A stretch of 64,000 nucleotides of DNA from Escherichia phage vB_Eco_NicPhage, in sequence record OY726582, one strand, 5' to 3'. Position numbers and translations under genes: made by a program. The notes beneath the pieces are model-generated. The model was given only the letters and a program-made list of their open reading frames with translations. It ran no database searches and was not told where the DNA came from. Below are positions 759 through 63,968 of the stretch, in pieces; the first letter of the stretch is position 1, and each line of letters begins with the position of its first letter.

Positions 759-1025
759 TTACTTATCACACTTAGCAACATAATTAGGCATATCACAGAA
801 TACAGAGCGAGTAACTACTCGACCCTTTGACCATGCTTCAGTTGCTTGTCCAGCCGTGCTATTAATATAGCTTGATTTAATGTTCTCAATACCCTGAGAA
901 TGTGATGCATTTACCGAACCGTTAGAAGGCCCAGAAGACTGGTTACCACCAGCTCCTGTACCTGTGGTAGCACCAACAGAGAATGCCATCATTACTGCGA
1001 ATAAACCAATTACTAATTTTTTCAT
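759..1025 (-). CDS. small secreted protein (N-terminal signal peptide)
   Basis: 88 aa ORF; hydrophobic N-terminus MKKLVIGLFAVMMAFSVGA; SD GAGGTAAAT before ATG. Confidence 0.5.
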   Translation of the reverse strand: MKKLVIGLFAVMMAFSVGATTGTGAGGNQSSGPSNGSVNASHSQGIENIKSSYINSTAGQATEAWSKGRVVTRSVFCDMPNYVAKCDK

Positions 1026-1056
1026 ATTTACCTCAAGTTAAGAGTTATTTATCTAC

Positions 1057-2046
1057 TTATTTATAGTAAGAATTATGATTTTCGAGATAGACTTGCTCAA
1101 GGAAATCATCCCAGAAACTCATATCTACTTTTTGTTGCATACCGTTCTTAGCGGCTTGTTCTGATGCTTGTTCTACCTGGTCAACAATGTCTTCCAGGAA
1201 TTCTTGTACAGTTTTAAACGTATGTTTACCAAGCTTAACATCGAGAATAAATGGAGCATCCTGAAGTGGGTAAACCAGGTCGCCGGTTTTGTAAATTTCC
1301 AATAATTGAAGTCCACCACGACATGCATGACTCAATGCTTTCCAGTCAATACCTTCGTTAGCTTCTGCCTTACGAGCACGTTCACCATAGTTCTCTTCCA
1401 GTTTAACCAGGATGGCATTGAACTCTTTATTGGTTAACGTATCTTGGAATTTACGGTCTAACAGATTATAGAATGTTTGCTTACCTGTTTTCTCGTTTTC
1501 GGTTTCAACCCACGAAGCAAATTCACCTACAGGCAGAACATTCTTCATATGTGATAAACGAATTACTGCACCATTATCAAAGTATTGTCCCCATTCATTA
1601 GAACGTTTAAGGGCTTGACGAAGAACAGCCAGTCGAGAACCCTTGACACCGTATTTAGAAGCTTGCTTACGGACATACCCTAAATAAGATTTCATGTTAG
1701 TGGTATAGAAACGAGACCTGTTATCTTGAATATACTTCCATACATCAGGCAAATCAGATTTAACTACTAGACTTTGTGGAGTGTGAAGCATATCTAATGC
1801 GACGGTTTCACCATCCGCAGCTAGTTTAAAGAAATATTTGAGACTATACAACTCATGGTCCACGTCGTCTTTTGTGTTCTTAGAAGATGTGTTATTCGTG
1901 TTCTTGCTCATGTGTTCTTTAACGTTACCGGTCAAGATATCACGAGCATGAGGGACATAAATTTCTTTAAAATCGACGTCAGATTCAGGAGTAGACGTTC
2001 CATAAAGGTGGCTACCAAAGTAGCCTTTCATAATTGTTTTCATCAT
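1057..2046 (-). CDS. nucleotidyltransferase-fold protein (Pol-beta-like GS...D.D motif)
   Basis: 329 aa ORF; motif GSHLYGTSTPESDVDF near N-terminus; start overlaps upstream stop (ATGA). Confidence 0.55.
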   Translation of the reverse strand: MMKTIMKGYFGSHLYGTSTPESDVDFKEIYVPHARDILTGNVKEHMSKNTNNTSSKNTKDDVDHELYSLKYFFKLAADGETVALDMLHTPQSLVVKSDLPDVWKYIQDNRSRFYTTNMKSYLGYVRKQASKYGVKGSRLAVLRQALKRSNEWGQYFDNGAVIRLSHMKNVLPVGEFASWVETENEKTGKQTFYNLLDRKFQDTLTNKEFNAILVKLEENYGERARKAEANEGIDWKALSHACRGGLQLLEIYKTGDLVYPLQDAPFILDVKLGKHTFKTVQEFLEDIVDQVEQASEQAAKNGMQQKVDMSFWDDFLEQVYLENHNSYYK

Positions 2047-3240: not shown

Positions 3241-3365
3241 TTTACCATACTCGTTTCAATAAGATTCACTATGCCGTTTACCATGTTATAAGTAAACATC
3301 GGATAATTGTATTGTACCACAACATAAGCGATAAGCAAAAGTTTCATTTTGTTCTCCGTTTGTTT

Positions 3366-3406
3366 TGATAGGACTACTATAACATAGTCCTACCAAGATG
3401 TAAACT
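3366..3406 (-). promoter_or_regulatory. T4-type early promoter cassette with dyad GATAGGACTA...TAGTCCTA
   Basis: GTTTAC -35, about 17 bp spacer, TATAGT -10 inside 9-bp inverted repeat. Confidence 0.55.
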
Positions 3407-3614
3407 ACCGATTGTGTTTTAAATGTTGATAAAGTTCTTCAACTTGTTTTGGGTCCAAAACAATTAGGTCATTTTCTTGACGAAGATAAATCCATCCCTT
3501 ATCCCCAGGACCATTTTTACAAAACATCACCGTCGTCATATCATCATCTTCAGCGCTTTCAGGTAAAAGTTCAAGTACACCGTCTTCAGATTTTCCAGTA
3601 TAATCGTAAAGCAT
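3405..3614 (-). CDS. hypothetical protein
   Basis: Track ORF 3405..3665; internal ATG (MLYDYTGK) preceded by SD GTGAGGA chosen. Confidence 0.4.
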   Translation of the reverse strand: MLYDYTGKSEDGVLELLPESAEDDDMTTVMFCKNGPGDKGWIYLRQENDLIVLDPKQVEELYQHLKHNR

Positions 3615-3858: not shown

Positions 3859-3865
3859 GATAGAT

Positions 3866-3897
3866 GCCAAAAAGCCCCAACCATAAGGAAGGGGCTA
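3866..3897 (-). terminator. rho-independent terminator after rI
   Basis: Minus strand hairpin AGCCCC-TTCCTTATGGTT-GGGGCT followed by TTTTTGG. Confidence 0.65.
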
Positions 3898-7459: not shown

Positions 7460-7510
7460 TTCTCCTCTAGTTGACAGGTCTATAGTAACACAACTAGAGG
7501 AGAAGTAAAC
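7460..7510 (-). promoter_or_regulatory. regB early promoter with anti-SD/SD inverted repeat
   Basis: GTTTAC-TTCTCCTCTAG-(23 bp containing TACTATAGAC)-CTAGAGGAGAA-ATCAAAATG; perfect 11-bp inverted repeat. Confidence 0.6.
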
Positions 7511-7514
7511 TACT

Positions 7515-7730
7515 TTATTGATAAAATGGAGTTAAAGCCCAAGATTCTTTAGATACCATATTGGCGAAATGCCTCATCTCTTCGATTTGGCGACGACGCT
7601 GGTCAGCATAGTCTTCTTCGCCTTCTTCCTTACAATCTTCAAGGTCTTCTTCAAGATACTTTAAGTATTCACTACAAATTTTGTTGACCTTTTCTTGAAA
7701 GTCCAATAACCCAGTAATAGTAGAAGCCAT
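7515..7730 (-). CDS. hypothetical acidic protein
   Basis: 71 aa ORF, start overlaps upstream stop. Confidence 0.45.
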   Translation of the reverse strand: MASTITGLLDFQEKVNKICSEYLKYLEEDLEDCKEEGEEDYADQRRRQIEEMRHFANMVSKESWALTPFYQ

Positions 7731-13314: not shown

Positions 13315-13334
13315 AATATTCTCCTCATGTTTTA

Positions 13335-13378
13335 ATAGGACTACTATAACATAGTCCTATCAGTTTGTACACTTATTT
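13335..13378 (-). promoter_or_regulatory. early promoter cassette (dyad ATAGGACTAC...ATAGTCCTAT)
   Basis: Same cassette as at 3366, 14897, 21671, 22002. Confidence 0.5.
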
Positions 13379-13573: not shown

Positions 13574-13597
13574 TTTTATATCTCCATTCACTCATTT

Positions 13598-13640
13598 GTT
13601 TTGATAGGTCTATAGTATCAACAACTACAGACCTTGTAAA
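13598..13640 (-). promoter_or_regulatory. early promoter cassette (GATAGGTCTATAGTATCA variant)
   Basis: GTTTAC -35 and TACTATAGACC -10 region directly upstream of 13373..13573. Confidence 0.55.
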
Positions 13641-13653
13641 CTGTTTTGTGAAA

Positions 13654-14685: not shown

Positions 14686-14890
14686 GTGAAGCCTCTACCA
14701 ATGGAACGATTGTACCGTTTATGTCTTCATTATAAGGGCAAATTGTACAGTGCGCATCTTCGAATCGGATGCCTTTGTGTTCAGATTTTTTATAACGCAT
14801 ATCGAATATCTTTGCAAACTTTTCACGAGTAATGGTTTTAGCAACCACTTTAGTTCCGATACTTTCGTAATAAATCATTGTGGACTCCAT
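14639..14890 (-). CDS. hypothetical protein (Cys/His-containing)
   Basis: 83 aa ORF immediately downstream of early promoter cassette. Confidence 0.4.
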   Translation of the reverse strand: MESTMIYYESIGTKVVAKTITREKFAKIFDMRYKKSEHKGIRFEDAHCTICPYNEDINGTIVPLVEASHDDLWDEYNIACREI

Positions 14891-14896
14891 TTGTTT

Positions 14897-14937
14897 TGAT
14901 AGGACTACTATAACATAGCCCTATCTTGTTGTAAACT
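14897..14937 (-). promoter_or_regulatory. early promoter cassette
   Basis: GTTTAC ... dyad GATAGGACTACTATAACATAGCCCTATC. Confidence 0.55.
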
Positions 14938-14940
14938 GTT

Positions 14941-17977: not shown

Positions 17978-17997
17978 TTTATTTTCCTCTCATTTTA

Positions 17998-18040
17998 TTT
18001 GATAGGTCTATAGTAACACCGTCCTTGGTGTTTGTACATC
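17998..18040 (-). promoter_or_regulatory. early promoter cassette (variant -35)
   Basis: TGTACAAAC ... GTGTTACTATAGACCTATC upstream of 17750..17977. Confidence 0.5.
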
Positions 18041-18542
18041 ATTTATTTTTAATTTTGCAAATTTTTCCAGCTTCAATGCACGCAGCATAGATGATGCTCT
18101 GGGCAATTTTATTGCTAGTGGACCTTGCAATCACACTAAGAACAATTTCTTTTTCTTCACCACCACATCCCCAGCTATTTTGCCCATGTGTACCTTTAAC
18201 TACGGCTGAAACTTCAACAGAACGTCCACCATCAGAAGTCTTAACATCCACAACCCAATCACCGTCTTTCTCATTAACCTGTGGTTTATCCCAAGAAATA
18301 CTAATATATGATTCACCGTCAATAGAAGTCGCCGGGTTTTTCTCTACAGTAAGACCTTCGCTTTCTAACCATTCAATAGTATTTGAGCATAAATCTGTAG
18401 AACATCTCATCGGAAAGCGGCATGATTTTTCACCTTTAGATGCAGCATCATACATCTTTTCCAAAATACGCTTTTGTACATTTTTAAAAACAACGTCACG
18501 CGATTCTTCAGATTTTTTATTCAGTTCAGTATAAAGACTCAT
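18039..18542 (-). CDS. hypothetical protein
   Basis: 167 aa; SD GAGGAAAA; promoter cassette upstream. Confidence 0.5.
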   Translation of the reverse strand: MSLYTELNKKSEESRDVVFKNVQKRILEKMYDAASKGEKSCRFPMRCSTDLCSNTIEWLESEGLTVEKNPATSIDGESYISISWDKPQVNEKDGDWVVDVKTSDGGRSVEVSAVVKGTHGQNSWGCGGEEKEIVLSVIARSTSNKIAQSIIYAACIEAGKICKIKNK

Positions 18543-18561
18543 AATGTTTTCCTCATTTGTT

Positions 18562-18602
18562 TTGATAGGTCTATAGTATCATACCTCAAGGAGAAGTAAA
18601 CA
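18562..18602 (-). promoter_or_regulatory. early promoter cassette
   Basis: GTTTAC-TTCTCCTTGAGG...GATACTATAGACCTATC upstream of 18039..18542. Confidence 0.55.
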
Positions 18603-18631
18603 ACTTTGTGAAAAATTTATCTGCCCTAGAT

Positions 18632-18665
18632 GCCCGAAAGCCCCAACCATAGGAAGGGGCTTAAG
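18632..18665 (-). terminator. hairpin (weak terminator) after IPIII-like gene
   Basis: Same AGCCCC...GGGGCT hairpin as at 3866 but poor U-tract. Confidence 0.4.
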
Positions 18666-19341: not shown

Positions 19342-19349
19342 TATTTATA
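19342..19349 (-). promoter_or_regulatory. late promoter (TATAAATA) for IPIII-like gene
   Basis: Exact TATAAATA on minus strand about 35 nt upstream of ATG at 19306. Confidence 0.55.
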
Positions 19350-19350
19350 C

Positions 19351-19380
19351 AAAAAAGCCCCAACCTTTCGGAAGGGGCTA
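19351..19380 (-). terminator. rho-independent terminator at end of tRNA/stable-RNA unit
   Basis: Minus strand AGCCCC-TTCCGAAAGGTT-GGGGCT + TTTTTTG. Confidence 0.7.
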
Positions 19381-21645: not shown

Positions 21646-21670
21646 TTTATTTCTCCATTTACTCATTTGA

Positions 21671-21712
21671 TTTGATAGGACTACTATAACATAGTCCTAT
21701 CATCATGTAAAC
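21671..21712 (-). promoter_or_regulatory. early promoter cassette
   Basis: GTTTAC ... dyad GATAGGACTACTATAACATAGTCCTATC upstream of 21460..21645. Confidence 0.55.
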
Positions 21713-21714
21713 TA

Positions 21715-21978
21715 TTAAATACCAGCTTCGCGTTTAACATAATCGACGTAAGCTTGGATAGCTTTCTTGCTGGTAATTTTTACCTGGCCTCGTCCGTTGC
21801 CTTCTTTAGAGTTTTTCTTAACAACTACATTACCATCTTTAACACCCCATACATGGACATAAGTACCGATGTTTCGGTCGTAGAACATTGCATGGTCGTT
21901 GTTGTAAGAGAATGATTCGTAGTTCTCTGACAGAGTAGAAGATTGAGATTCAGCGATAAATTCTTTATAGGTTTTCAT
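21715..21978 (-). CDS. internal protein (IP family, leader MKTYKEFIAE)
   Basis: 87 aa; IP leader; own promoter cassette upstream. Confidence 0.6.
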   Translation of the reverse strand: MKTYKEFIAESQSSTLSENYESFSYNNDHAMFYDRNIGTYVHVWGVKDGNVVVKKNSKEGNGRGQVKITSKKAIQAYVDYVKREAGI

Positions 21979-22001
21979 TTGTTTTTCCGTTTGGTTGTTG
22001 A

Positions 22002-22042
22002 TTTGATAGGACTACTATAACATAGTCCTATCAGCATGTAAA
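22002..22042 (-). promoter_or_regulatory. early promoter cassette upstream of IP gene
   Basis: Identical 28-bp dyad and GTTTAC as at 21671. Confidence 0.55.
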
Positions 22043-22046
22043 CTAC

Positions 22047-22334
22047 TTACAGAAGAGTTTTTGCAATAATTTTAAGCTGAGCTACAGAAATATGCTTAGC
22101 TTTAAACAGTGCGGTCTCTTCGGCCGGAGAGATAACAACAGTAGCGCCATCTTTCTTAGCAGACCATCCATCCCCTAAGTAAACAGTACCTTTTACTTCT
22201 TCACCATCAACCAGACTAATCATCGGTTTACCCTCACGTCCTTTATTTGCTTTAATAACTTCGGAAGTAAGGGTTGCTTCGGTCAGAGTAGAAACGTTAG
22301 CAACAGGTGATATAAATTCTTTATAGGTTTTCAT
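22047..22334 (-). CDS. internal protein, IPI-position (leader MKTYKEFI)
   Basis: 95 aa; IP leader; immediately upstream of 57B as ipI is in T4. Confidence 0.6.
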   Translation of the reverse strand: MKTYKEFISPVANVSTLTEATLTSEVIKANKGREGKPMISLVDGEEVKGTVYLGDGWSAKKDGATVVISPAEETALFKAKHISVAQLKIIAKTLL

Positions 22335-22357
22335 TTTATTTCCTTGAGGTCGTTTAT

Positions 22358-22400
22358 TTGATAGGATGATAGTAACACACCATCGTCCTTATGTAAACTG
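22358..22400 (-). promoter_or_regulatory. early promoter cassette upstream of ipI-like gene
   Basis: GTTTAC ... imperfect dyad AGGATGAT...ATCGTCCT. Confidence 0.5.
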
Positions 22401-22411
22401 TTTTGTGAAAA

Positions 22412-23097
<686 letters not shown>

Positions 23098-23101
23098 TTT
23101 A

Positions 23102-23836
23102 TTACCTTAAGATTGTTTCAATTTTAGAATAAAGCTCTTCTAAAGAGCCGTCGTTTGTAATAACTAAATCGCCTTCTTCAATAGGCAACCCAGCTTCTGT
23201 AATATGTTTATCGGTGGATTCCGTACCAGAGCGAACCACATGAATAACTGTAGCACCCATCGCTCTAGCGGTTTCCATTTCATGGACTTGGCGTGTATCG
23301 GTCACAACATAGTAATCGAAATCACTTCCAATATAATCCATATAGTTTAATGCAAAAAGTTTAACCCAATACATACGGTCAAATAAATTAACGACAACAT
23401 CCGTACCGAGGGCTTGCATAAGACGGCGGATTGACCATGTGTCGTTGATATTATTTATAGCTTCACGCAGGGCTTCATATGGTTTAATATCTAGATACGA
23501 ATATCCACCTTCTAACGATGATAATACTTTAACATTATTAATCGGTAAATATTGACTTTGCAAATAAATTAGCGCTTCTTCCAATAATTCAATAACATCC
23601 AACTTATTGAGATTTAATGGTGTTTCACGGTCGTATCCAATGCCTTCAAAGTATTCGTATTTCAACTCTGTGAATACATCAGGATTTTCAGCATGCCTAC
23701 GTCCCCAGGCTATTGCTAGAGCGTCTTTAATTGGATATGCTAATTGGTATTTTACGGATTTAAAGTTTGAATTGATGTAATCAGCAGTGGTGTCTTTACC
23801 ACTACGTTTGATGCCACTTAAAAAGATTAGCTCCAT
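23102..23836 (-). CDS. 1: deoxynucleoside monophosphate kinase gp1
   Basis: 244 aa; MELIFLSGIKRSGKDTTADYI... nearly identical to T4 gp1 N-terminus as recalled. Confidence 0.9.
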   Translation of the reverse strand: MELIFLSGIKRSGKDTTADYINSNFKSVKYQLAYPIKDALAIAWGRRHAENPDVFTELKYEYFEGIGYDRETPLNLNKLDVIELLEEALIYLQSQYLPINNVKVLSSLEGGYSYLDIKPYEALREAINNINDTWSIRRLMQALGTDVVVNLFDRMYWVKLFALNYMDYIGSDFDYYVVTDTRQVHEMETARAMGATVIHVVRSGTESTDKHITEAGLPIEEGDLVITNDGSLEELYSKIETILR

Positions 23837-23889: not shown

Positions 23890-24480
23890 TTAACGCAAGG
23901 AAGGGTGTCTAGAAATGGATTTAGATTCGACTGCTTGACGTGGTTGTTGAGATACAATGACTTCACCATCCTTTTCTATCGTCATGTACGCATAGTGAAT
24001 AGTTGCTACGCACGTAACGGCAGGGTCAGAGTCTTCGGTGTAACTAAATTCAATTTCACTCAAATCAGAAATCCATGGTTTATAGAAATTCGCCGTCAAA
24101 ACTACTTCAGTCTTATTGTTGTTTAAAATGTGCAAAGTAACAAACTCAGGACCATCGGAGTGGGCCGTATTATGTCCGGTTATATAGTTATTAGTGCTGA
24201 GCATCCATTTATACATGTTCATCCAGGACGTCATGTCTTCATCAACTATAAATCGTACAACAAAAGGGTCGTATTCAAATGTGGTGCCTGCACGCATTGC
24301 ACGTCCTAACCCCATCGTGCCTGTCACAGTTTCAACAACAGGAATTCTCACACCTGGCAATGGAGCCGTTTGGGCATTGAGCACAAAACCTGAAGTTCGT
24401 GTACTATCTGGGATATCCACAACAAAGTTTGTTATATTTGTTTGGTTAAAAATCTGTCTCGTTGGACGAGTCATAAGCAC
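23890..24480 (-). CDS. 3: tail completion / sheath stabiliser gp3
   Basis: Assigned by synteny 1-3-2-4-53; 196 aa in track, true start uncertain (T4 gp3 is about 176 aa). Confidence 0.6.
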   Translation of the reverse strand: MLMTRPTRQIFNQTNITNFVVDIPDSTRTSGFVLNAQTAPLPGVRIPVVETVTGTMGLGRAMRAGTTFEYDPFVVRFIVDEDMTSWMNMYKWMLSTNNYITGHNTAHSDGPEFVTLHILNNNKTEVVLTANFYKPWISDLSEIEFSYTEDSDPAVTCVATIHYAYMTIEKDGEVIVSQQPRQAVESKSISRHPSLR

Positions 24481-24485
24481 CTCAA

Positions 24486-24530
24486 AAACGCTTTAATAAA
24501 AATGCAGTATAATGGTTTTAGGTCTCTTCC
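24486..24530 (+). promoter_or_regulatory. middle-promoter-like module (MotA-box-like GCTTTA + 12 bp + TATAAT), antisense to genes 2/4
   Basis: AAAACGCTTTA-ataaaaatgcag-TATAAT-GGTTTTAGGTC; shares 17 nt with uvsY promoter region. Confidence 0.35.
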
Positions 24531-24576
24531 ATTAATCCGGTTCAACAGAATATCAGAAGAACGGAAGAGAATAGAA

Positions 24577-25398
24577 TTAAGATTTCCAAACAGTATTCGC
24601 AGAGAAACGTTTTCCTTTTGACATAAACTGCTGAGTAGGTAACATGATTATGTTAGCCCAGTCTTTAGGAGCTATTTCTGTTATTGTTCCTCTAATGTGG
24701 CCTGGCAGGTATGCTTTAATCATTTTGTCAGCACCTTGAAATCCTTTCACCTTGCTCCAGTCTATCTTCAACTTTGTGTTATTAGTAATAGTAGTTGTGC
24801 TAGCATATTGCTTCAGCAATTCTTCAAGAAACTGTTGTCGTGCTTTAGGTGGGATATAGTGCAAGTTTAACCCGTACATCAAATTATGTTTACCTAATCC
24901 TAAATAAATAATCAAAGGATATCGGTCCCAGTATGGCAGAGTATCTTTATGTTTAGCATCATACACGTAAGTATAAATTTTGCCTGGCGTAGGCTTGACT
25001 ACTTTATGACCTTTTACACTTTTTTTAATTGTTTCAACAAACCACTTAGATGATTTGTTGTTTACTGCTGCGCCTTCATTTCTAATCTTTTCTCGTATTG
25101 AACTGCGAAACGAGTTTATCATCAGAAGTTGACGTTCTTGCTTATTGAGTTTATTTTTAGGTTTAGATTCAAGCGTTTCAATTTTCTGTGCAGTCTTAAT
25201 AGATGATGCATATCTAGACATTGCAGATGTAAACGACGAGTATTTTATTCCTTTTGATTCTGCAAATGCTTTTGCAGTGATTCCTTTCTCTTTAGCTTTC
25301 TTGTATTCTAATCCTATCTCAATCCATTTTCTTTCATTCATAGACTGAGCAATCTTAGGGGCTTGTACGCCTTCAGATATAATTTGGAATATGCTCAT
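24577..25398 (-). CDS. 2: DNA end protector protein gp2
   Basis: 273 aa, same size and position as T4 gp2. Confidence 0.75.
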
Positions 25399-25400
25399 AA

Positions 25401-25850
25401 TTACCCCTTGTATCCGAGTTTTCTAAGACCATCTTCGGTTAGAACTCGAAATTTTATATTTCTCTTTTCAGCAACAGCTGAGGCAGCTTTCCATTTGTCG
25501 CAGTTCACAGACCAGGTATATATTTCATTCATATAACGTTTCTTAGCCGCAGTTGTAAGATTCACCGGTTTAATAGGTGGTTGAGTTTCTTTCTTTGGTT
25601 TTATTTCTACAAAGAACTCTTGACCTGATGCATCTTTCATCCATATGTCCATGTAGTATCGACGTTTCTTGCCTTCAGCATTACAAAAATATGGAATTAC
25701 TGCTGTTTCACTACCCCATGCAATAATTTCTGGATTTTTATCCAACCATTCGAAAAAGAATTTTTCCCAGTTTGAACGATACGTTATTTTGGTATGGTCT
25801 CCACGGTATTTTTTTAAATTTTTTGGGACCCATTTACCAGAGTAGGCCAT
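25401..25850 (-). CDS. 4: head completion protein gp4
   Basis: Track ORF 25401..25994 trimmed to ATG at 25850 (MAYSGKW...) with SD GGAGGA and late promoter upstream; 150 aa as T4 gp4. Confidence 0.75.
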
Positions 25851-25911: not shown

Positions 25912-26487
25912 TTGTTATTTACATTCTTCGACCCAATAGGATATAGTGCTAAAACAGTTGATAAGAATGCACCTACTATTCCTATGACAGACATATTTCG
26001 TAACTATAAAGAGTACTTTAAGCGTGTTGCTGCCAATTATAGATTACGTTCTTATTATATTAAAGGCTCTCCGCGTCCTGAAGAACTAGCGAATATCATT
26101 TATGGCAACCCTCAATTATACTGGGTTCTTTTGATGTGCAACGATAACTACGACCCGTATTATGGTTGGATTACATCTCAGGAAGCAGCGTATCAAGCTT
26201 CTATTCAGAAATATGCTAATGCTGGCGGCGACCAAATTCTTTATCATATTAACGAGAACCGTGAGAAATTTTACAATTTGGTTTCATATCCTGACGAGCC
26301 TTTAGTGTGGTACGATAAAGGTGATGAAGCTCGTAAGTATCCGCAATATAAAGGACCTTTAGCTGCAGTAGATATTTATGAAGCGGCTGTATTAGATAAC
26401 GAAAAACTTCGTAAAATAAAAATTGTTGCAAAAGAAGATATAAACTCGTTTATTACTGATTTGATTCGTGAGATGGAGATTGCATAA
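25912..26487 (+). CDS. 53: baseplate wedge protein gp53
   Basis: 191 aa; begins MLFTFFDP; apparent TTG start 8 nt after AGGAG; stop overlaps gp5 ATG. Confidence 0.8.
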   Translation: MLFTFFDPIGYSAKTVDKNAPTIPMTDIFRNYKEYFKRVAANYRLRSYYIKGSPRPEELANIIYGNPQLYWVLLMCNDNYDPYYGWITSQEAAYQASIQKYANAGGDQILYHINENREKFYNLVSYPDEPLVWYDKGDEARKYPQYKGPLAAVDIYEAAVLDNEKLRKIKIVAKEDINSFITDLIREMEIA

Positions 26488-41578: not shown

Positions 41579-42505
41579 ATGTCAGGTTATAATGCACAAA
41601 ACCCTAAAGAATTAAAGGATGTAATATTACGTCGTTTAGGCGCTCCTATTGTAAATGTTGAATTAACTACGGACCAAATTTATGATTGTATTTCACGAGC
41701 GTTAGAACTTTATGGCGAATACCATTTTGACGGGTTGAATAAAGGTTTCCATGTATTTTTTGTTGATGACGAAGAAAAATACCGTCACGGCGTATTTGAT
41801 ATGCGTGGTTCTAACGTATTTGCCGTAACAAGAATTATAAGAACAAATGTTGGCTCTATTACTTCAATGGATGGTAATGCAACTTATCCATGGTTCACCG
41901 ATTTCCTTTTAGGAATGGCTGGTGTTTCAGGTGGTATGGGTAGTAATTGTGGTAAATTCTACGGCCCAAACGCTTTTGGCGCTGACCTCGGGTATTATTC
42001 TCAATTAGTATCTTATATGGGTATGCTTCAAGATATGATTGCTCCTCTTCCAGATTTTTGGTTTAACTCTGCAAACGAGCAATTAAAAGTAATGGGTAAC
42101 TTTAGACAGAAAGATGTCATTATCGTTGAATCGTATGTTCGCTCTTATATCGAGACCCATAAGATGGTAGGAAATACAGTAGGGTACGGTCAGGTTGGTC
42201 CTCGTGATTCATGGTCTATTTCTGAACGTTATGATAATCCAGACCATAATTTGGTAGGACGTCGAGTTGGTGAAGATCCTGCAACTAAACAAGGCGCATA
42301 TAACAACCGCTGGGTTAAAGATTATGCAACTGCATTAGCTAAAGAGCTTAATGGACAAATTCTTGCTAAACATCAAGGTATGATGTTACCTGGTGGCGTC
42401 ACTGTTGATGGTGTTCGATTAATTGAAGAAGCTCGTTTAGAGAAAGAAGCTTTACGAGAAGAGTTATATTTACTGGACCCTCCTGCAGGTATTTTGGTAG
42501 GTTAA
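41579..42505 (+). CDS. 13: neck protein gp13
   Basis: 308 aa; synteny. Confidence 0.9.
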
Positions 42506-43942: not shown

Positions 43943-44894
43943 ATGATGTTTGGTTATTTTTACAACTCGTCGTTCAGGCGATATATCACAATGATGGGCG
44001 ATTTGTTTTCAAATATCCAAGTTAACCGTCAATTGTCTACAGGCAATAAATTAATTAGAGTTCCTATTACGTATGCATCTAAAGAGCACTTTATGATGAA
44101 ACTTAATAAATGGACCTCTATAAACTCACAAGAAGATGTGGCTAAAGTCGAAACTATTCTACCACGTATAAATCTCCAAATGGTGGATTTCGTTTATAAC
44201 CCAACGTTTAAAACGAATATATTGAATAACTCTCTTTTGAGTAAATCGACTAAGGATATTGTAGACCAATACAACCCATCACCAATTAAAATGATTTTTG
44301 AACTGAGCATCTTTACTCGTTATGAAGATGATATGTTCCAAATCGTTGAGCAAATTATTCCATATTTTCAGCCGCATTTTAATACGACTATGATTGAGCA
44401 ATATGGGCAGGATATTCCATTTGAAAGGGATATTAAAGTCGTATGGATGGCAGCAGCAATGGATGAACAAATAGACGGTGATAATTTATCTCGTCGACGT
44501 TTAGAGTGGTCATTAACATTTGAAGTAAATGGATGGATGTATCCTCCGGTAGGCGCAGCTGAAGGCCTTATTAAAACGACTTATCTTGATTTTCATGCTA
44601 AACGGTGATAATTTATCTCGTCGACGTTTAGAGTGGTCATTAACATTTGAAGTAAATGGATGGATGTATCCTCCGGTAGGCGCAGCTGAAGGCCTTATTA
44701 AAACGACTTATCTTGATTTTCATGCTAATGAACGAGACCTTCAAACAGCCGCCAGTGTTTTTGAATCAGTTGATACAGAAATTAAACCGAGAGACGTTGA
44801 AGCACAAGATTGGAATGGTGAAGTTGAACAAACTTATACTCATGATATTCCAATCCCGTCTCCACCAACCCCTCCTGGTCCTAGAAAACAATAA
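43943..44894 (+). pseudogene. 15: gene 15 (tail sheath stabiliser / tail terminator) split by a 127-bp tandem duplication; frames 43943..44608 and 44586..44894
   Basis: The peptide GDNLSRRRLEWSLTFEVNGWMYPPVGAAEGLIKTTYLDFHA occurs at the end of one track ORF and the start of the next in a different frame; removing one copy restores a single ORF of about 274 aa (T4 gp15 about 272 aa). Confidence 0.75.
44475..44728 (+). repeat. perfect tandem direct duplication, 2 x 127 bp, inside gene 15
   Basis: 44475..44601 is identical to 44602..44728 by direct reading; unit length is not a multiple of 3. Confidence 0.9.
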
Positions 44895-55543: not shown

Positions 55544-55562
55544 TTTGTTTACTCCTCTGTAG

Positions 55563-55603
55563 TTGATAAGTCTATAGTATCACATACTAAATACGTTGTA
55601 AAC
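55563..55603 (-). promoter_or_regulatory. early promoter cassette inside late region
   Basis: GTTTACAACG...GATACTATAGACTTATC upstream of minus-strand ORF 55274..55543. Confidence 0.5.
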
Positions 55604-55609
55604 AATCTT

Positions 55610-55617
55610 TATAAATA
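55610..55617 (+). promoter_or_regulatory. late promoter TATAAATA (gene 24)
   Basis: Exact consensus about 28 nt upstream of gp24 ATG. Confidence 0.65.
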
Positions 55618-56961: not shown

Positions 56962-57960
56962 TTATGATACTAATTCAATCCATGCAGGACGCAGAACATC
57001 TTGCACCATTCGGACTAATTCTTTCTTAACAAGATTCGGATTATCAGATGATGTTAATACAATACCTTCACGAGAAGTTTCTTCCAGAATATCTTGAACA
57101 GTCAATCCCATCACTTTGCCAAAATCTTTTGGCGTTACAGTCCCAATCTTAGAAATAACATTATTAACACGATTTAATGTAACATAACAAGCTAGAACAT
57201 CAAGCAAGTTTTTGTCAATTTCGGTTAATGGAACCTGAGTTTTAATAGGCTTATCAGACTTTTTCTTTTCACTGAATTTAGAGTTCTTGCACTTAATAGC
57301 TACACGAGTACCGTTTGGCAGCCATTTAGGAAAACAAGGCTTCAGAACATAACCTTCTGCTGTATTATCGCCAATAACATTAGCATCAAATACACAATTA
57401 TTTGCTTCTACAAGGTCTTCTGACGCAGTAGCATTATAAGCGGCTAAGACAGAATCAAGGTCGTTTGGAATCATGATAAGAGCATCAAATGTGCCACGTC
57501 CAAGCATTGGTGCCATTTTAAAACCGAATTCATTACAGAAATCTTGCATTTCGTAATCGGTCAAATACGTATTATCACCACTTTCTGTATTGATAAGGAT
57601 ATCGAACACATAAAAATCTTTTTCACCGTAGTCAACACCTTTCTGGATTCCACCACCAGCGAATTCACCAAAGACCTGATATGATACAGCTCGAGAACTA
57701 CCCATTACTTCTTGAACGTTTTTAATAGCCTTATCATACTTCTTGAGTACAATTTCATAACCATAAAAATCTTCTGCTGGAAGAATAGGGCCTGTGCGCT
57801 TGGCGCATGTGACGTTGTCACGTTCAATTATTAACGAGAAGTTAGTCCCATGGATTTTCTCACGTGCTACCCAAACACCAGTAGTCAAACCATTAGTGTA
57901 GAGTTTTTCAATAAACTTAGAGTTGTAGTGGTTTTCAAGACTGCTGTATTTCTTAAACAT
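56962..57960 (-). CDS. rnlB: RNA ligase 2
   Basis: 332 aa; near-identity to T4 Rnl2 as recalled ([21 protein letters not shown]...[12 protein letters not shown] with nucleotidyl-transferase motif I Lys). Confidence 0.9.
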
Positions 57961-62758: not shown

Positions 62759-62989
62759 ATGGTACTTGAATTTAAACAATTTTTATACGAAGCATCTATT
62801 GACGAATTCATGGGTAAAATTGCTAGTTGTCATACCCTAGAAGGGCTTGAAGAATTGGAAGCTTATTATAAGAAACGTATAAAAGAAACGGAATTAAAAG
62901 ATACAGATGATATTTCTGTCAGGGATGCCTTAGCAGGTAAGCGTGCCGAACTTGAAGGCGATGATGAGGATGTGGAAGAAGACTTCTAA
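62759..62989 (+). CDS. uvsW.1: UvsW.1 accessory protein
   Basis: 76 aa acidic ORF directly after uvsW, as in T4. Confidence 0.75.
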   Translation: MVLEFKQFLYEASIDEFMGKIASCHTLEGLEELEAYYKKRIKETELKDTDDISVRDALAGKRAELEGDDEDVEEDF

Positions 62990-63047
62990 TTAAAAAAAGG
63001 CCCGACCTTTTTGGAAGGGCCAAAAACCATAGGCAAAAAAGGTAACA

Positions 63048-63885: not shown

Positions 63886-63925
63886 AATATTCTCTCTTTA
63901 ACTAATAATCTCCCGGCTGTATCGG

Positions 63926-63968
63926 AAGGACCTAAAACCATTATACATAGGTTGCCTTGAAGCATTAC
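63926..63968 (-). promoter_or_regulatory. middle (MotA-type) promoter upstream of uvsY
   Basis: Minus strand AATGCTTCA + 12 bp + TATAAT-GGTTTTAGGTCC. Confidence 0.5.

Follow-up and report, generated by a model that had tools for sequence, protein, structure and literature searches.

A candidate antisense middle promoter between genes 2 and 3 of an RB69-like phage and its kinship with the uvsY promoter

Bacteriophage T4 serves as the reference for work on timed transcription in phages and on replication primed by R-loops, and the promoter of its gene uvsY (PuvsY) belongs to both subjects, as a middle promoter and as part of the origin oriF, also called ori(uvsY). Middle promoters carry a MotA box of consensus (a/t)(a/t)(a/t)TGCTTtA, centred at about −30 and found at the same position in T4 and RB69, and RB69 possesses both motA and asiA (Nolan et al., 2006). 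In a supplementary table of the same study (Virol J 3:30, Additional file 4), a hidden Markov model (HMM) predicts a middle promoter, Pm:79256, on the plus strand of RB69, whose score of 16.3 is the highest of the four plus-strand sites predicted. Here I describe the corresponding element in a stretch of 64,000 nucleotides from Escherichia phage vB_Eco_NicPhage (record OY726582; this whole stretch is hereafter called the window, and positions refer to it), where a candidate MotA-type promoter lies between genes 2 and 3, points antisense to both, and is related to PuvsY.

The candidate promoter in the gene 2/gene 3 spacer

The element is found in the 102-nt spacer that runs from the stop codon of gene 2 to the start of gene 3, and is opposed to both genes (Table 1; gene coordinates were transferred from the RB69 annotation). 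It possesses the features of a middle promoter, with the GCTT of a MotA-like box at −30 to −27 of the predicted start and a −10 hexamer within 11–13 bp of this box, and a purine is present at the start-site offset in all copies compared. A sigma-70 scan for −35/−10 pairs listed no promoter at this site. An earlier reading of the window, made from the letters alone (the sequence-only reading), had taken the element for a middle promoter of MotA type that points antisense and is akin to that of uvsY. Its sequence and its coordinates were both correct, and the anatomy and conservation of the element support the proposal; on the sequence comparisons reported here, this core reading holds. The direction of transcription that it gave, through genes 2 and 4 toward gene 53, agrees with the RB69 annotation. 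It had overlooked a third copy of the promoter cassette, a hairpin downstream of the start site, and the identity of the phage, which is RB69-like and not T4.

That identity comes from the 1 kb around the spacer, which matches Escherichia phage vB_EcoM_KAW3E185 at 100% identity and RB69 at 98%, and for which all 152 full-length matches are Mosigvirus-type phages. The source phage is, judging by these matches, a Mosigvirus (RB69-like, T4-type). The motA locus lies outside the window, and the presence of MotA is established for the genus rather than for this exact genome: tblastn with T4 MotA identified homologs of ∼50% identity in Mosigvirus genomes (e.g. mar005P1, AV110, MM02 and SCS57).

The pattern GCTT-N13-15-TATAAT occurs seven times in the window where 1.09 occurrences are expected, a count reached in none of 100 shuffles, and five of the seven matches are on the minus strand, which is that of the early and middle genes. 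A second plus-strand match, with a 13-nt gap, lies inside the 5′ end of gene 2 (25361–25383); its MotA box is poor (GGGGCTTGT), and it is possibly a chance occurrence.

In T4, the same site and orientation carry ataaTGCTTTA-taactgttggtgg-TATAAT-gggtctAagtcccttccatt, followed by a CTTCCATTC...GAATGGAAG hairpin, and the T2 module is identical to that of T4. Gene 2/gene 3 junctions were compared from 11 further genera besides Mosigvirus and T4. The antisense GCTT(T/A)-N-TATAAT module is also present in Moonvirus, Karamvirus, Gaprivervirus, Dhakavirus and the Acinetobacter phage KARL-1 (Lazarusvirus), as well as in Maestro (Hadassahvirus), where the box reads GCTA. TATAAT is perfect at the orthologous site in all seven genera compared, and in Maestro in addition, and the spacer outside the module cannot be aligned between genera. 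The element is therefore not lost from relatives with the same gene order, as the sequence-only reading had suggested checking, and is found in at least seven further genera; counted over two subfamilies, eight genera have this copy between core genes, at a fixed site and in a fixed orientation.

The module is absent from the 2/3 junctions of Krischvirus (RB49-like), Pseudotevenvirus (RB43-like), Bragavirus, Tulanevirus and Biquartavirus. In Jiaodavirus, genes 2 and 3 abut, with no spacer and no copy of the module there. MotA homologs were identified in 1142 phage records, against 1479 for gp3, including 67 of ∼68 Acinetobacter records; they occur in phages of Escherichia, Klebsiella, Enterobacter and Acinetobacter, and in Mosig-, Jiaoda- and Karam-type phages among these. 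RB49 and RB43 are given as lacking motA (Nolan et al., 2006), and the sampled RB49-like and RB43-like phages lack the module; it therefore appears to be confined to motA-bearing lineages, some of which do without it.

Within Mosigvirus, the spacer is 90–100% identical across 153 genomes. The most divergent one, that of ESCO47, has about 11 differences, which are confined to the hairpin loop, the stretch between box and hexamer, and the bases adjoining the box; through one of them, CGCTT becomes the consensus TGCTT. The −10 hexamer, the core common with uvsY and the hairpin stems are untouched. This variant is informative on constraint, and uninformative on co-variation as its core is unchanged.

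Relation to the uvsY promoter

The sequence TATAATGGTTTTAGGTC is present without mismatch at 24508–24524 (+) and at 63929–63945 (−), the latter in the uvsY promoter. The 17-nt core proposed earlier as common to both promoters is confirmed, and is in fact 18 nt long, since the preceding G is also common. When a 1-nt indel is allowed, the match grows to 34 nt at 79% identity (24507–24540, +, against 63913–63946), and the common block is the longest and top-ranked inverted repeat of the window. Two other exact 17-nt pairs exist in the window, and the bare identity of the 17-mer is therefore not significant on its own. A third match to it, at 22615, has three mismatches and is not a promoter, and a scan of IMG/VR with the 17-mer returned 20 stretches with one match each. 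The relation is nonetheless non-random, as seen from the enrichment of the promoter pattern, the location of the common block at equal promoter positions in both copies, and the conservation across genera.

The third copy of the cassette is located upstream of a 332-amino-acid open reading frame (ORF) at 56962–57960, rnlB. At this spot T2 has no promoter, and Jiaodavirus KP1079 has a related one.

Gene 25/uvsY junctions were taken from the same genomes as the 2/3 junctions, for comparison of the paralogous promoters. Every uvsY junction examined has a MotA-type promoter, in which the −10-proximal and early transcribed bases resemble those of the gene-3-side copy in the same genome. The strings common to both sides are lineage-specific: ggttttaggtc in Mosig (within a common sequence of gTATAATggttttaggtc), tctaagtcc in T4, ggttttgagtt in Karam, ggttctagacc in Gapriver and ggtcctag / ggtcctat in Dhaka. 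Over the 12 nt past the hexamer, identity is 9.7/12 within genomes and 6.9/12 across genomes, and in an exact permutation test a total as high as the observed one is obtained in only 4 of 5040 pairings (p = 0.0008). Between box and hexamer the test shows a weaker effect (p = 0.036), and farther upstream it shows none (p = 0.68); in most genera the 12–13 nt between box and hexamer are unrelated between paralogs, at 5.4/12 compared to 9.7/12 downstream.

The Acinetobacter phages have two or three copies of the cassette each, with ∼75–80 nt nearly identical between the gene 3 side and the gene 25 side, and the gene 3 side of Maestro is a tandem pair. All three leader differences between KARL-1 and Maestro are common to all paralogs within each phage. 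Four of the five Acinetobacter leaders end in a one-codon mini-ORF (AUG-NNN-UAG) after GGAG; the first unit of the Maestro tandem instead continues into the next copy.

Because copies in the same genome carry common lineage-specific bases, the gene-3-side and uvsY-side copies, which are ∼39 kb apart and inverted, are by this comparison evolving in concert. Homogenisation does not seem to be the only force. A consensus, tTATAATGGTTyTAG..CCTTCC, extends across genera, and the uvsY copy keeps it even in Jiaodavirus, which has no 2/3 twin; selection therefore appears to act on the sequence itself too. The sequence-only reading had also offered a relic of recombination between promoter modules. The kinship of the modules stands, and in place of a decaying relic the comparisons point to a maintained, co-evolving family of cassettes.

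This family raises the question of whether the 2/3 copy does anything at all. It could be an evolutionary by-product, an inverted copy of the uvsY/rnlB cassette deposited by recombination and kept similar by gene conversion only, whose RNA would be functionless even if the promoter fired. The threefold repetition of the cassette in the window, the tandem duplication in Maestro, the homing-endonuclease genes that adjoin gene 2 in phages of the Karam, Gapriver, Lazarus and Hadassah genera, the demonstrable concerted evolution, the known shuffling of promoter cassettes (PeSL, PmSL) in T4-type phages, and the fact that Jiaodavirus manages without a gene-3-side copy all agree with this. However, the MotA box and its spacing lie outside the co-converted block and are kept in all genera with the module, position and orientation are fixed across two subfamilies, and the within-genus variant ESCO47 retains the core and improves the box. 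I therefore regard a functionless by-product as unlikely.

Table 1. Positions of the features discussed, in the window unless stated otherwise.
Feature	Position	Strand	Remarks
MotA-box-like aaaCGCTTTA	24486–24495	+	
Box-to-hexamer spacer, 12 nt, ataaaaatgcag	24496–24507	+	
Sigma-70 −10 hexamer TATAAT	24508–24513	+	Perfect; 12 bp past the MotA box
Predicted start, A24520	24520	+	After GGTTTT, 7 nt past the −10; read from sequence, inferred rather than mapped
Hairpin UCUCUUCC...GGAAGAGA	24523–24570	RNA of either strand	Between the promoter and the gene 2 stop codon
Putative non-coding antisense (anti-late) transcript across gene 2	24520–25400	+	3′ end inferred only
uvsY promoter: taaTGCTTCA	63967–63958	−	
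uvsY promoter: TATAAT	63945–63940	−	Predicted +1 at A63933
uvsY start codon ATG	63884	−	
Third cassette copy: atATGCTTTA, 13 bp, TATAAT (58057), gaatctAggttctatccattc / gaatctaggttctatccattc	58080–58045	−	
Gene 1	23101–23835	−	RB69 annotation transfer
Gene 3 (tail completion / sheath stabiliser)	23890–24474	−	RB69 annotation; Shine-Dalgarno sequence and ATG ∼10 nt from the MotA box
Gene 2 (DNA end protector)	24577–25398	−	RB69 annotation transfer; gene under the antisense transcript
Gene 4	25401–25850	−	RB69 annotation transfer
Gene 53	25912–26487	+	RB69 annotation transfer
Late promoters (TATAAATA), back-to-back	25862 and 25884	+ and −	
Acinetobacter cassette, KARL-1	940–1194		Coordinates of the retrieved segment
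Acinetobacter cassette, Maestro	1143–1410 and 41692–41900		Coordinates of the retrieved segment
Acinetobacter cassette, segment L021	7640–7895		Coordinates of the retrieved segment
Early-promoter-like repeats	662–720, 3357–3409, 7465–7523, 13324–13376, 13593–13645, 14888–14940, 17991–18043, 18554–18606, 21664–21716, 21995–22047, 22350–22402, 55557–55615	−	Strand of the promoter-like reading

The predicted antisense RNA and its possible role

The reading that I favour, and consider probable, is that the element is a functional promoter, dependent on MotA and AsiA, that makes a non-coding anti-late RNA. Published T4 data bear on this. Gene-level RNA-seq at 5 min is available for wild type, a motA-am mutant and a dksA host (Patterson-West et al., 2018; PMC6024815, Table S1). 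In this order, gene 2 has 1464, 74 and 825 reads/kb (mean reads 1208, 61 and 681), gene 3 has 246, 48 and 147 (131, 25 and 78), gene 4 has 1164, 48 and 104 (527, 22 and 47), and gene 53 has 1010, 23 and 71 (597, 14 and 42). Gene 2 reads, from counts whose strandedness is unstated, are thus 20-fold down in motA-am and insensitive to DksA, unlike those of genes 4 and 53; the authors of the study remark on a strong reduction of several late genes in the dksA host at this time (PMC6024815). In this respect gene 2 differs from gene 4, its supposed co-transcript, and resembles the middle genes 1 and 57A, at 0.65-fold. On the T4 minus strand near genes 4-2-3, the sole canonical late promoter precedes gene 4, and among nearby promoters of MotA type only the plus-strand one at 75965–75993 is strong. 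The T4 GenBank records NC_000866, AF158101 and X14845 have no promoter annotated at the 2/3 site. The T4 numbers fit an antisense, MotA-dependent RNA that covers gene 2 and fades before gene 4, and suggest indirectly that the promoter is active in vivo and depends on MotA.

The same densities bear on another role proposed in the sequence-only reading, that of a middle-mode promoter for baseplate genes, which would be the clockwise genes 53, 5 and following, expressed ahead of the late period. The orientation would suit this, and a search for intrinsic terminators from the promoter up to gene 53 found none, either in the window or in T4. However, ∼1.4 kb of untranslated antisense RNA would precede gene 53, and untranslated RNA is normally terminated by Rho. 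The fall in density in the dksA host, from gene 2 through gene 4 to gene 53, also disfavours it, and I consider such a role most improbable.

If the promoter does make an anti-late RNA, the course of events may be as follows. E. coli sigma-70 RNA polymerase, re-targeted by AsiA and MotA, would fire clockwise from the 2/3 spacer, against the late genes. The RNA would start at about A24520, promptly fold into a CUUCC/GGAAG hairpin, and run antisense through gene 2; by analogy to T4 it would mostly end before gene 53, probably in a Rho-dependent manner since it is untranslated. Genes 4-2-3 are late genes on the strand of the early genes, and are therefore exposed to read-through from upstream early and middle promoters. 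An anti-late RNA timed by MotA could oppose this leftward read-through, by convergent transcription, by pairing or by both, and so hold genes 4-2-3 silent up to the time when transcription passes to the late promoter ahead of gene 4. T4 is known to guard e, soc, 49 and I-TevI from read-through by hiding their ribosome sites in the early transcripts, and a middle promoter that faces the 4-2 unit from its downstream end could, by analogy, give equivalent protection through collision or pairing. The orientation and sequence of the element correspond to what is expected of a cis-antisense regulator, that is an opposite-strand promoter yielding RNA complementary to its target. Among the three roles put forward in the sequence-only reading, antisense regulation of genes 2 and 4 is the best fit, with regulation itself being a proposal; interference with premature expression of 4-2-3 is, as far as can be inferred, the most likely role.

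Several observations weigh against this. The first base of the MotA box is C, not T; the gene 1 middle promoter of the same phage (23869, −) likewise reads CGCTT, and the 2/3 copies of T4 and ESCO47 read TGCTT. Jiaodavirus has MotA, yet has no 2/3 spacer and no 2/3 copy, so that one lineage at least manages without the element. The −10-proximal block could be kept intact solely by gene conversion from the uvsY copy. The start at A24520 is a prediction from sequence. As for the T4 data, the libraries of PMC6024815 are stranded and the counting mode is unstated, and the gene 2 signal could come from sense RNA. The gene 2 pattern is also not unique, as T4 genes 6–8, 10 and 11 are MotA-dependent and DksA-insensitive too. 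On the matter of counting, the default of featureCounts is unstranded.

A separate observation was made for T4 genes 6–12 (NC_000866, 81081–92132). At 5 min, read density peaks at gene 11, falls leftward, and drops ∼50-fold at gene 12. This could reflect a further anti-late transcript starting near the 11/12 junction, or a late unit that fires early.

The predicted antisense RNA appears to be non-coding, since no antisense ORF is conserved: a hidden antisense protein gene was considered and rejected, the open stretches varying in place and frame among six genera. A search of Rfam gave no match even at E ≤ 10. In the predicted RNA, the hairpin at 24523–24570 takes up the first ∼50 nt (−13.7 kcal/mol, z = −2.4), the z values obtained for it being about −2.4 to −3.2. 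Equivalent hairpins built on the conserved CUUCC/GGAAG are found in T4, Moon and Karam, and their inner pairs are compensatory (AUUC:GAAU in T4, GGU:ACC in Moon and GGA:UCC in Karam). The uvsY copies mostly have no hairpin, and in the window the stem-loop is present at the 2/3 copy only.

Being palindromic, this hairpin also forms on the late 4-2-3 mRNA, directly past the gene 2 stop. The annotation of phage SA35RD describes it as a minus-strand terminator. An intrinsic terminator is not supported here, as there is no U-tract on either strand and a terminator scan was empty at this position. A minus-strand late promoter for gene 3 was rejected as well, TATAAATA being missing from the spacer of every genus except the unrelated one of Pseudotevenvirus. 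In Gapriver (CAGTGTTAT...ATAACACTG; 1107–1191 of the retrieved segment) and in Dhaka (AGCCAGT...ACTGGCT; 1119–1203 of the retrieved segment), inverted repeats of 7–9 bp flank the −10 and the start site. There, the antisense RNA cannot form the hairpin, which is restricted to the sense mRNA or to DNA, and this argues that at least a part of its role is probably on the sense RNA.

The conserved block might instead be a sense element of the late 4-2-3 mRNA, with a 3′ stabilising or attenuating hairpin and the region for translation initiation of gene 3, its resemblance to a promoter being incidental. The hairpin directly past the gene 2 stop in T4, Mosig, Moon and Karam, the inverted repeats of the Dhaka and Gapriver spacers, the terminator annotation in one relative, and a T4 gene 3 RNA density ∼6-fold below that of gene 2 are consistent with such an element. 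Against it, the hairpin has no U-tract on either strand, and GCTT-N-TATAAT-GGTTyTAG has no minus-strand reading as a late promoter or other known signal, in a spacer without TATAAATA. The same block is in sense orientation at uvsY and rnlB, so that a constraint at the RNA level could not be common to all copies. A hairpin and a promoter can also coexist, and I find it very unlikely that the promoter resemblance is incidental.

A different role for an antisense promoter would be in replication. The MotA-dependent RNA could form a persistent R-loop that primes clockwise leading-strand synthesis into the late block, in or near oriE, mirroring the counter-clockwise oriF. The twin of the 2/3 promoter is the T4 oriF promoter, and minimal oriF and oriG each consist of a middle-mode promoter and a downstream unwinding element. 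In all genera examined, the similarity to the uvsY copy takes in the −10 hexamer and the first transcribed bases, and the antisense RNA is non-coding. In T4, the 2/3 copy is ∼2 kb from repEB/oriE and points toward oriE, and oriE, oriF and oriG are all near points where the transcribed strand switches. However, no unwinding element is evident, the nearest-neighbour stability of 24521–24571 being at the 54th percentile and its AT content 61%, against 61.8% for the window; this test is weak, as it also rates the T4 oriF region as no more than mildly unstable. The sequence directly downstream forms a stable hairpin and not an open tract, a middle promoter at oriE is argued against in the review literature, and both the rnlB copy and the Jiaodavirus loss suit a generic promoter cassette better. 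An origin of this type thus seems rather unlikely. A bolder version would couple the 2/3 promoter and PuvsY as inverted oriF-type R-loop origins converging on the ∼39-kb late block. The 2/3 copy would then be the primer promoter of the oriE region, its first 12–20 nt co-varying with those of PuvsY because of a need in priming or R-loop formation, or of a factor that reads them, rather than by simple conversion. I consider this improbable, and retain a promoter for anti-late RNA as the preferred reading.

Other repeats, and comparison with described systems

The window contains further repeats. A 127-nt tandem duplication at 44472–44725 (+), with copies 99% identical and a length that is not a multiple of 3, coincides with an apparently split gene (ORFs 43943–44608 and 44586–44894; a tail or neck gene by position), and may reflect either a genuine duplication that shifts the frame or an error of assembly. 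A GC-rich hairpin, AAAGCCCCAACC...GGAAGGGGCT, is repeated at 3864–3897, 18630–18663, 19347–19380 and 62989–63022, and is probably a recurring intrinsic terminator. A family of direct repeats of ∼50–60 nt reads on the minus strand like T4-type early promoters (GTTTAC ... TATAGT) and has an internal palindrome (Table 1); because of these two features, they look like PeSL-like early-promoter cassettes.

For the 2/3 element itself, the class of MotA-type promoters is already known, and the RB69 copy is listed in the supplement of Nolan et al. (2006). Its conservation across subfamilies, the fixed antisense orientation, the kinship and co-evolution with uvsY/oriF and the third copy were not found described in the literature covered, which did not include the main compilations of T4 promoters, and experimental mapping in T4 may already exist. 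The element is a candidate either for control, by antisense RNA or by interference, of late genes encoded on the early-gene strand, or for a second oriF-like priming site. Should it prove to be no more than a promoter whose RNA is a by-product, the finding would be an ordinary one.

Pm:79256 is the same element in the type Mosigvirus (RB69 79256–79296, +), predicted with an HMM of the T4 consensus, and A24520 of the window corresponds to about 79,296 there. It appears as a coordinate in a supplementary table, and its antisense orientation, wider conservation and uvsY kinship are not mentioned in the main-text passages concerned; nor does the word "antisense" occur in the main text (Nolan et al., 2006).

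T4 PuvsY is homologous to the 2/3 copy, with the MotA box, the 12–13 bp spacing, TATAAT and the next 12–20 nt in common, as illustrated in T4 by gtggTATAATg..tctaagtcc. Both adjoin baseplate or tail late genes located on the early-gene strand. PuvsY differs in being the sense promoter of a protein gene, with an A-rich unstructured leader that is the unwinding element, whereas the 2/3 copy runs opposite to its neighbours, serves no gene, and has a strong hairpin downstream.

T4 oriG, or ori(34), likewise has a MotA-dependent promoter in the late region of gene 34, together with an unwinding element, and its transcript is used as RNA and not as mRNA. Transcription at ori(34) is antisense to gene 34. 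An origin function is established for ori(34) and only hypothesised for the 2/3 element, and little sequence homology between oriF and oriG is noted in review. Antisense transcription of T4 gene 32, reportedly described by Belin and colleagues in 1987, provides a precedent for antisense transcripts in T4, at another locus and with nothing pointing to a common mechanism.

Finally, the PeSL and PmSL elements (Arbiol 2010; Comeau 2014) are similar in being short, repeated promoter cassettes that serve as recombination substrates. They are associated with stem-loops, and here a hairpin, lacking a U-tract, is present at the 2/3 copy only. The PmSLs of vibriophage nt-1 have a TGCTT Mot box and a −10. 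The element described here is repeated in the same manner, with its three window copies at 24508 (+), 58057 (−) and 63945 (−). PeSL and PmSL elements were described in hyperplastic regions, bordering indels or variable ORFs, while the 2/3 copy is instead at a fixed site between core genes. The element shows that, as with the PeSL cassettes of early promoters, middle promoters can act as repeated modules that are homogenised inside one genome, a behaviour that bears on promoter predictions and on recombination breakpoints in T4-like phages.

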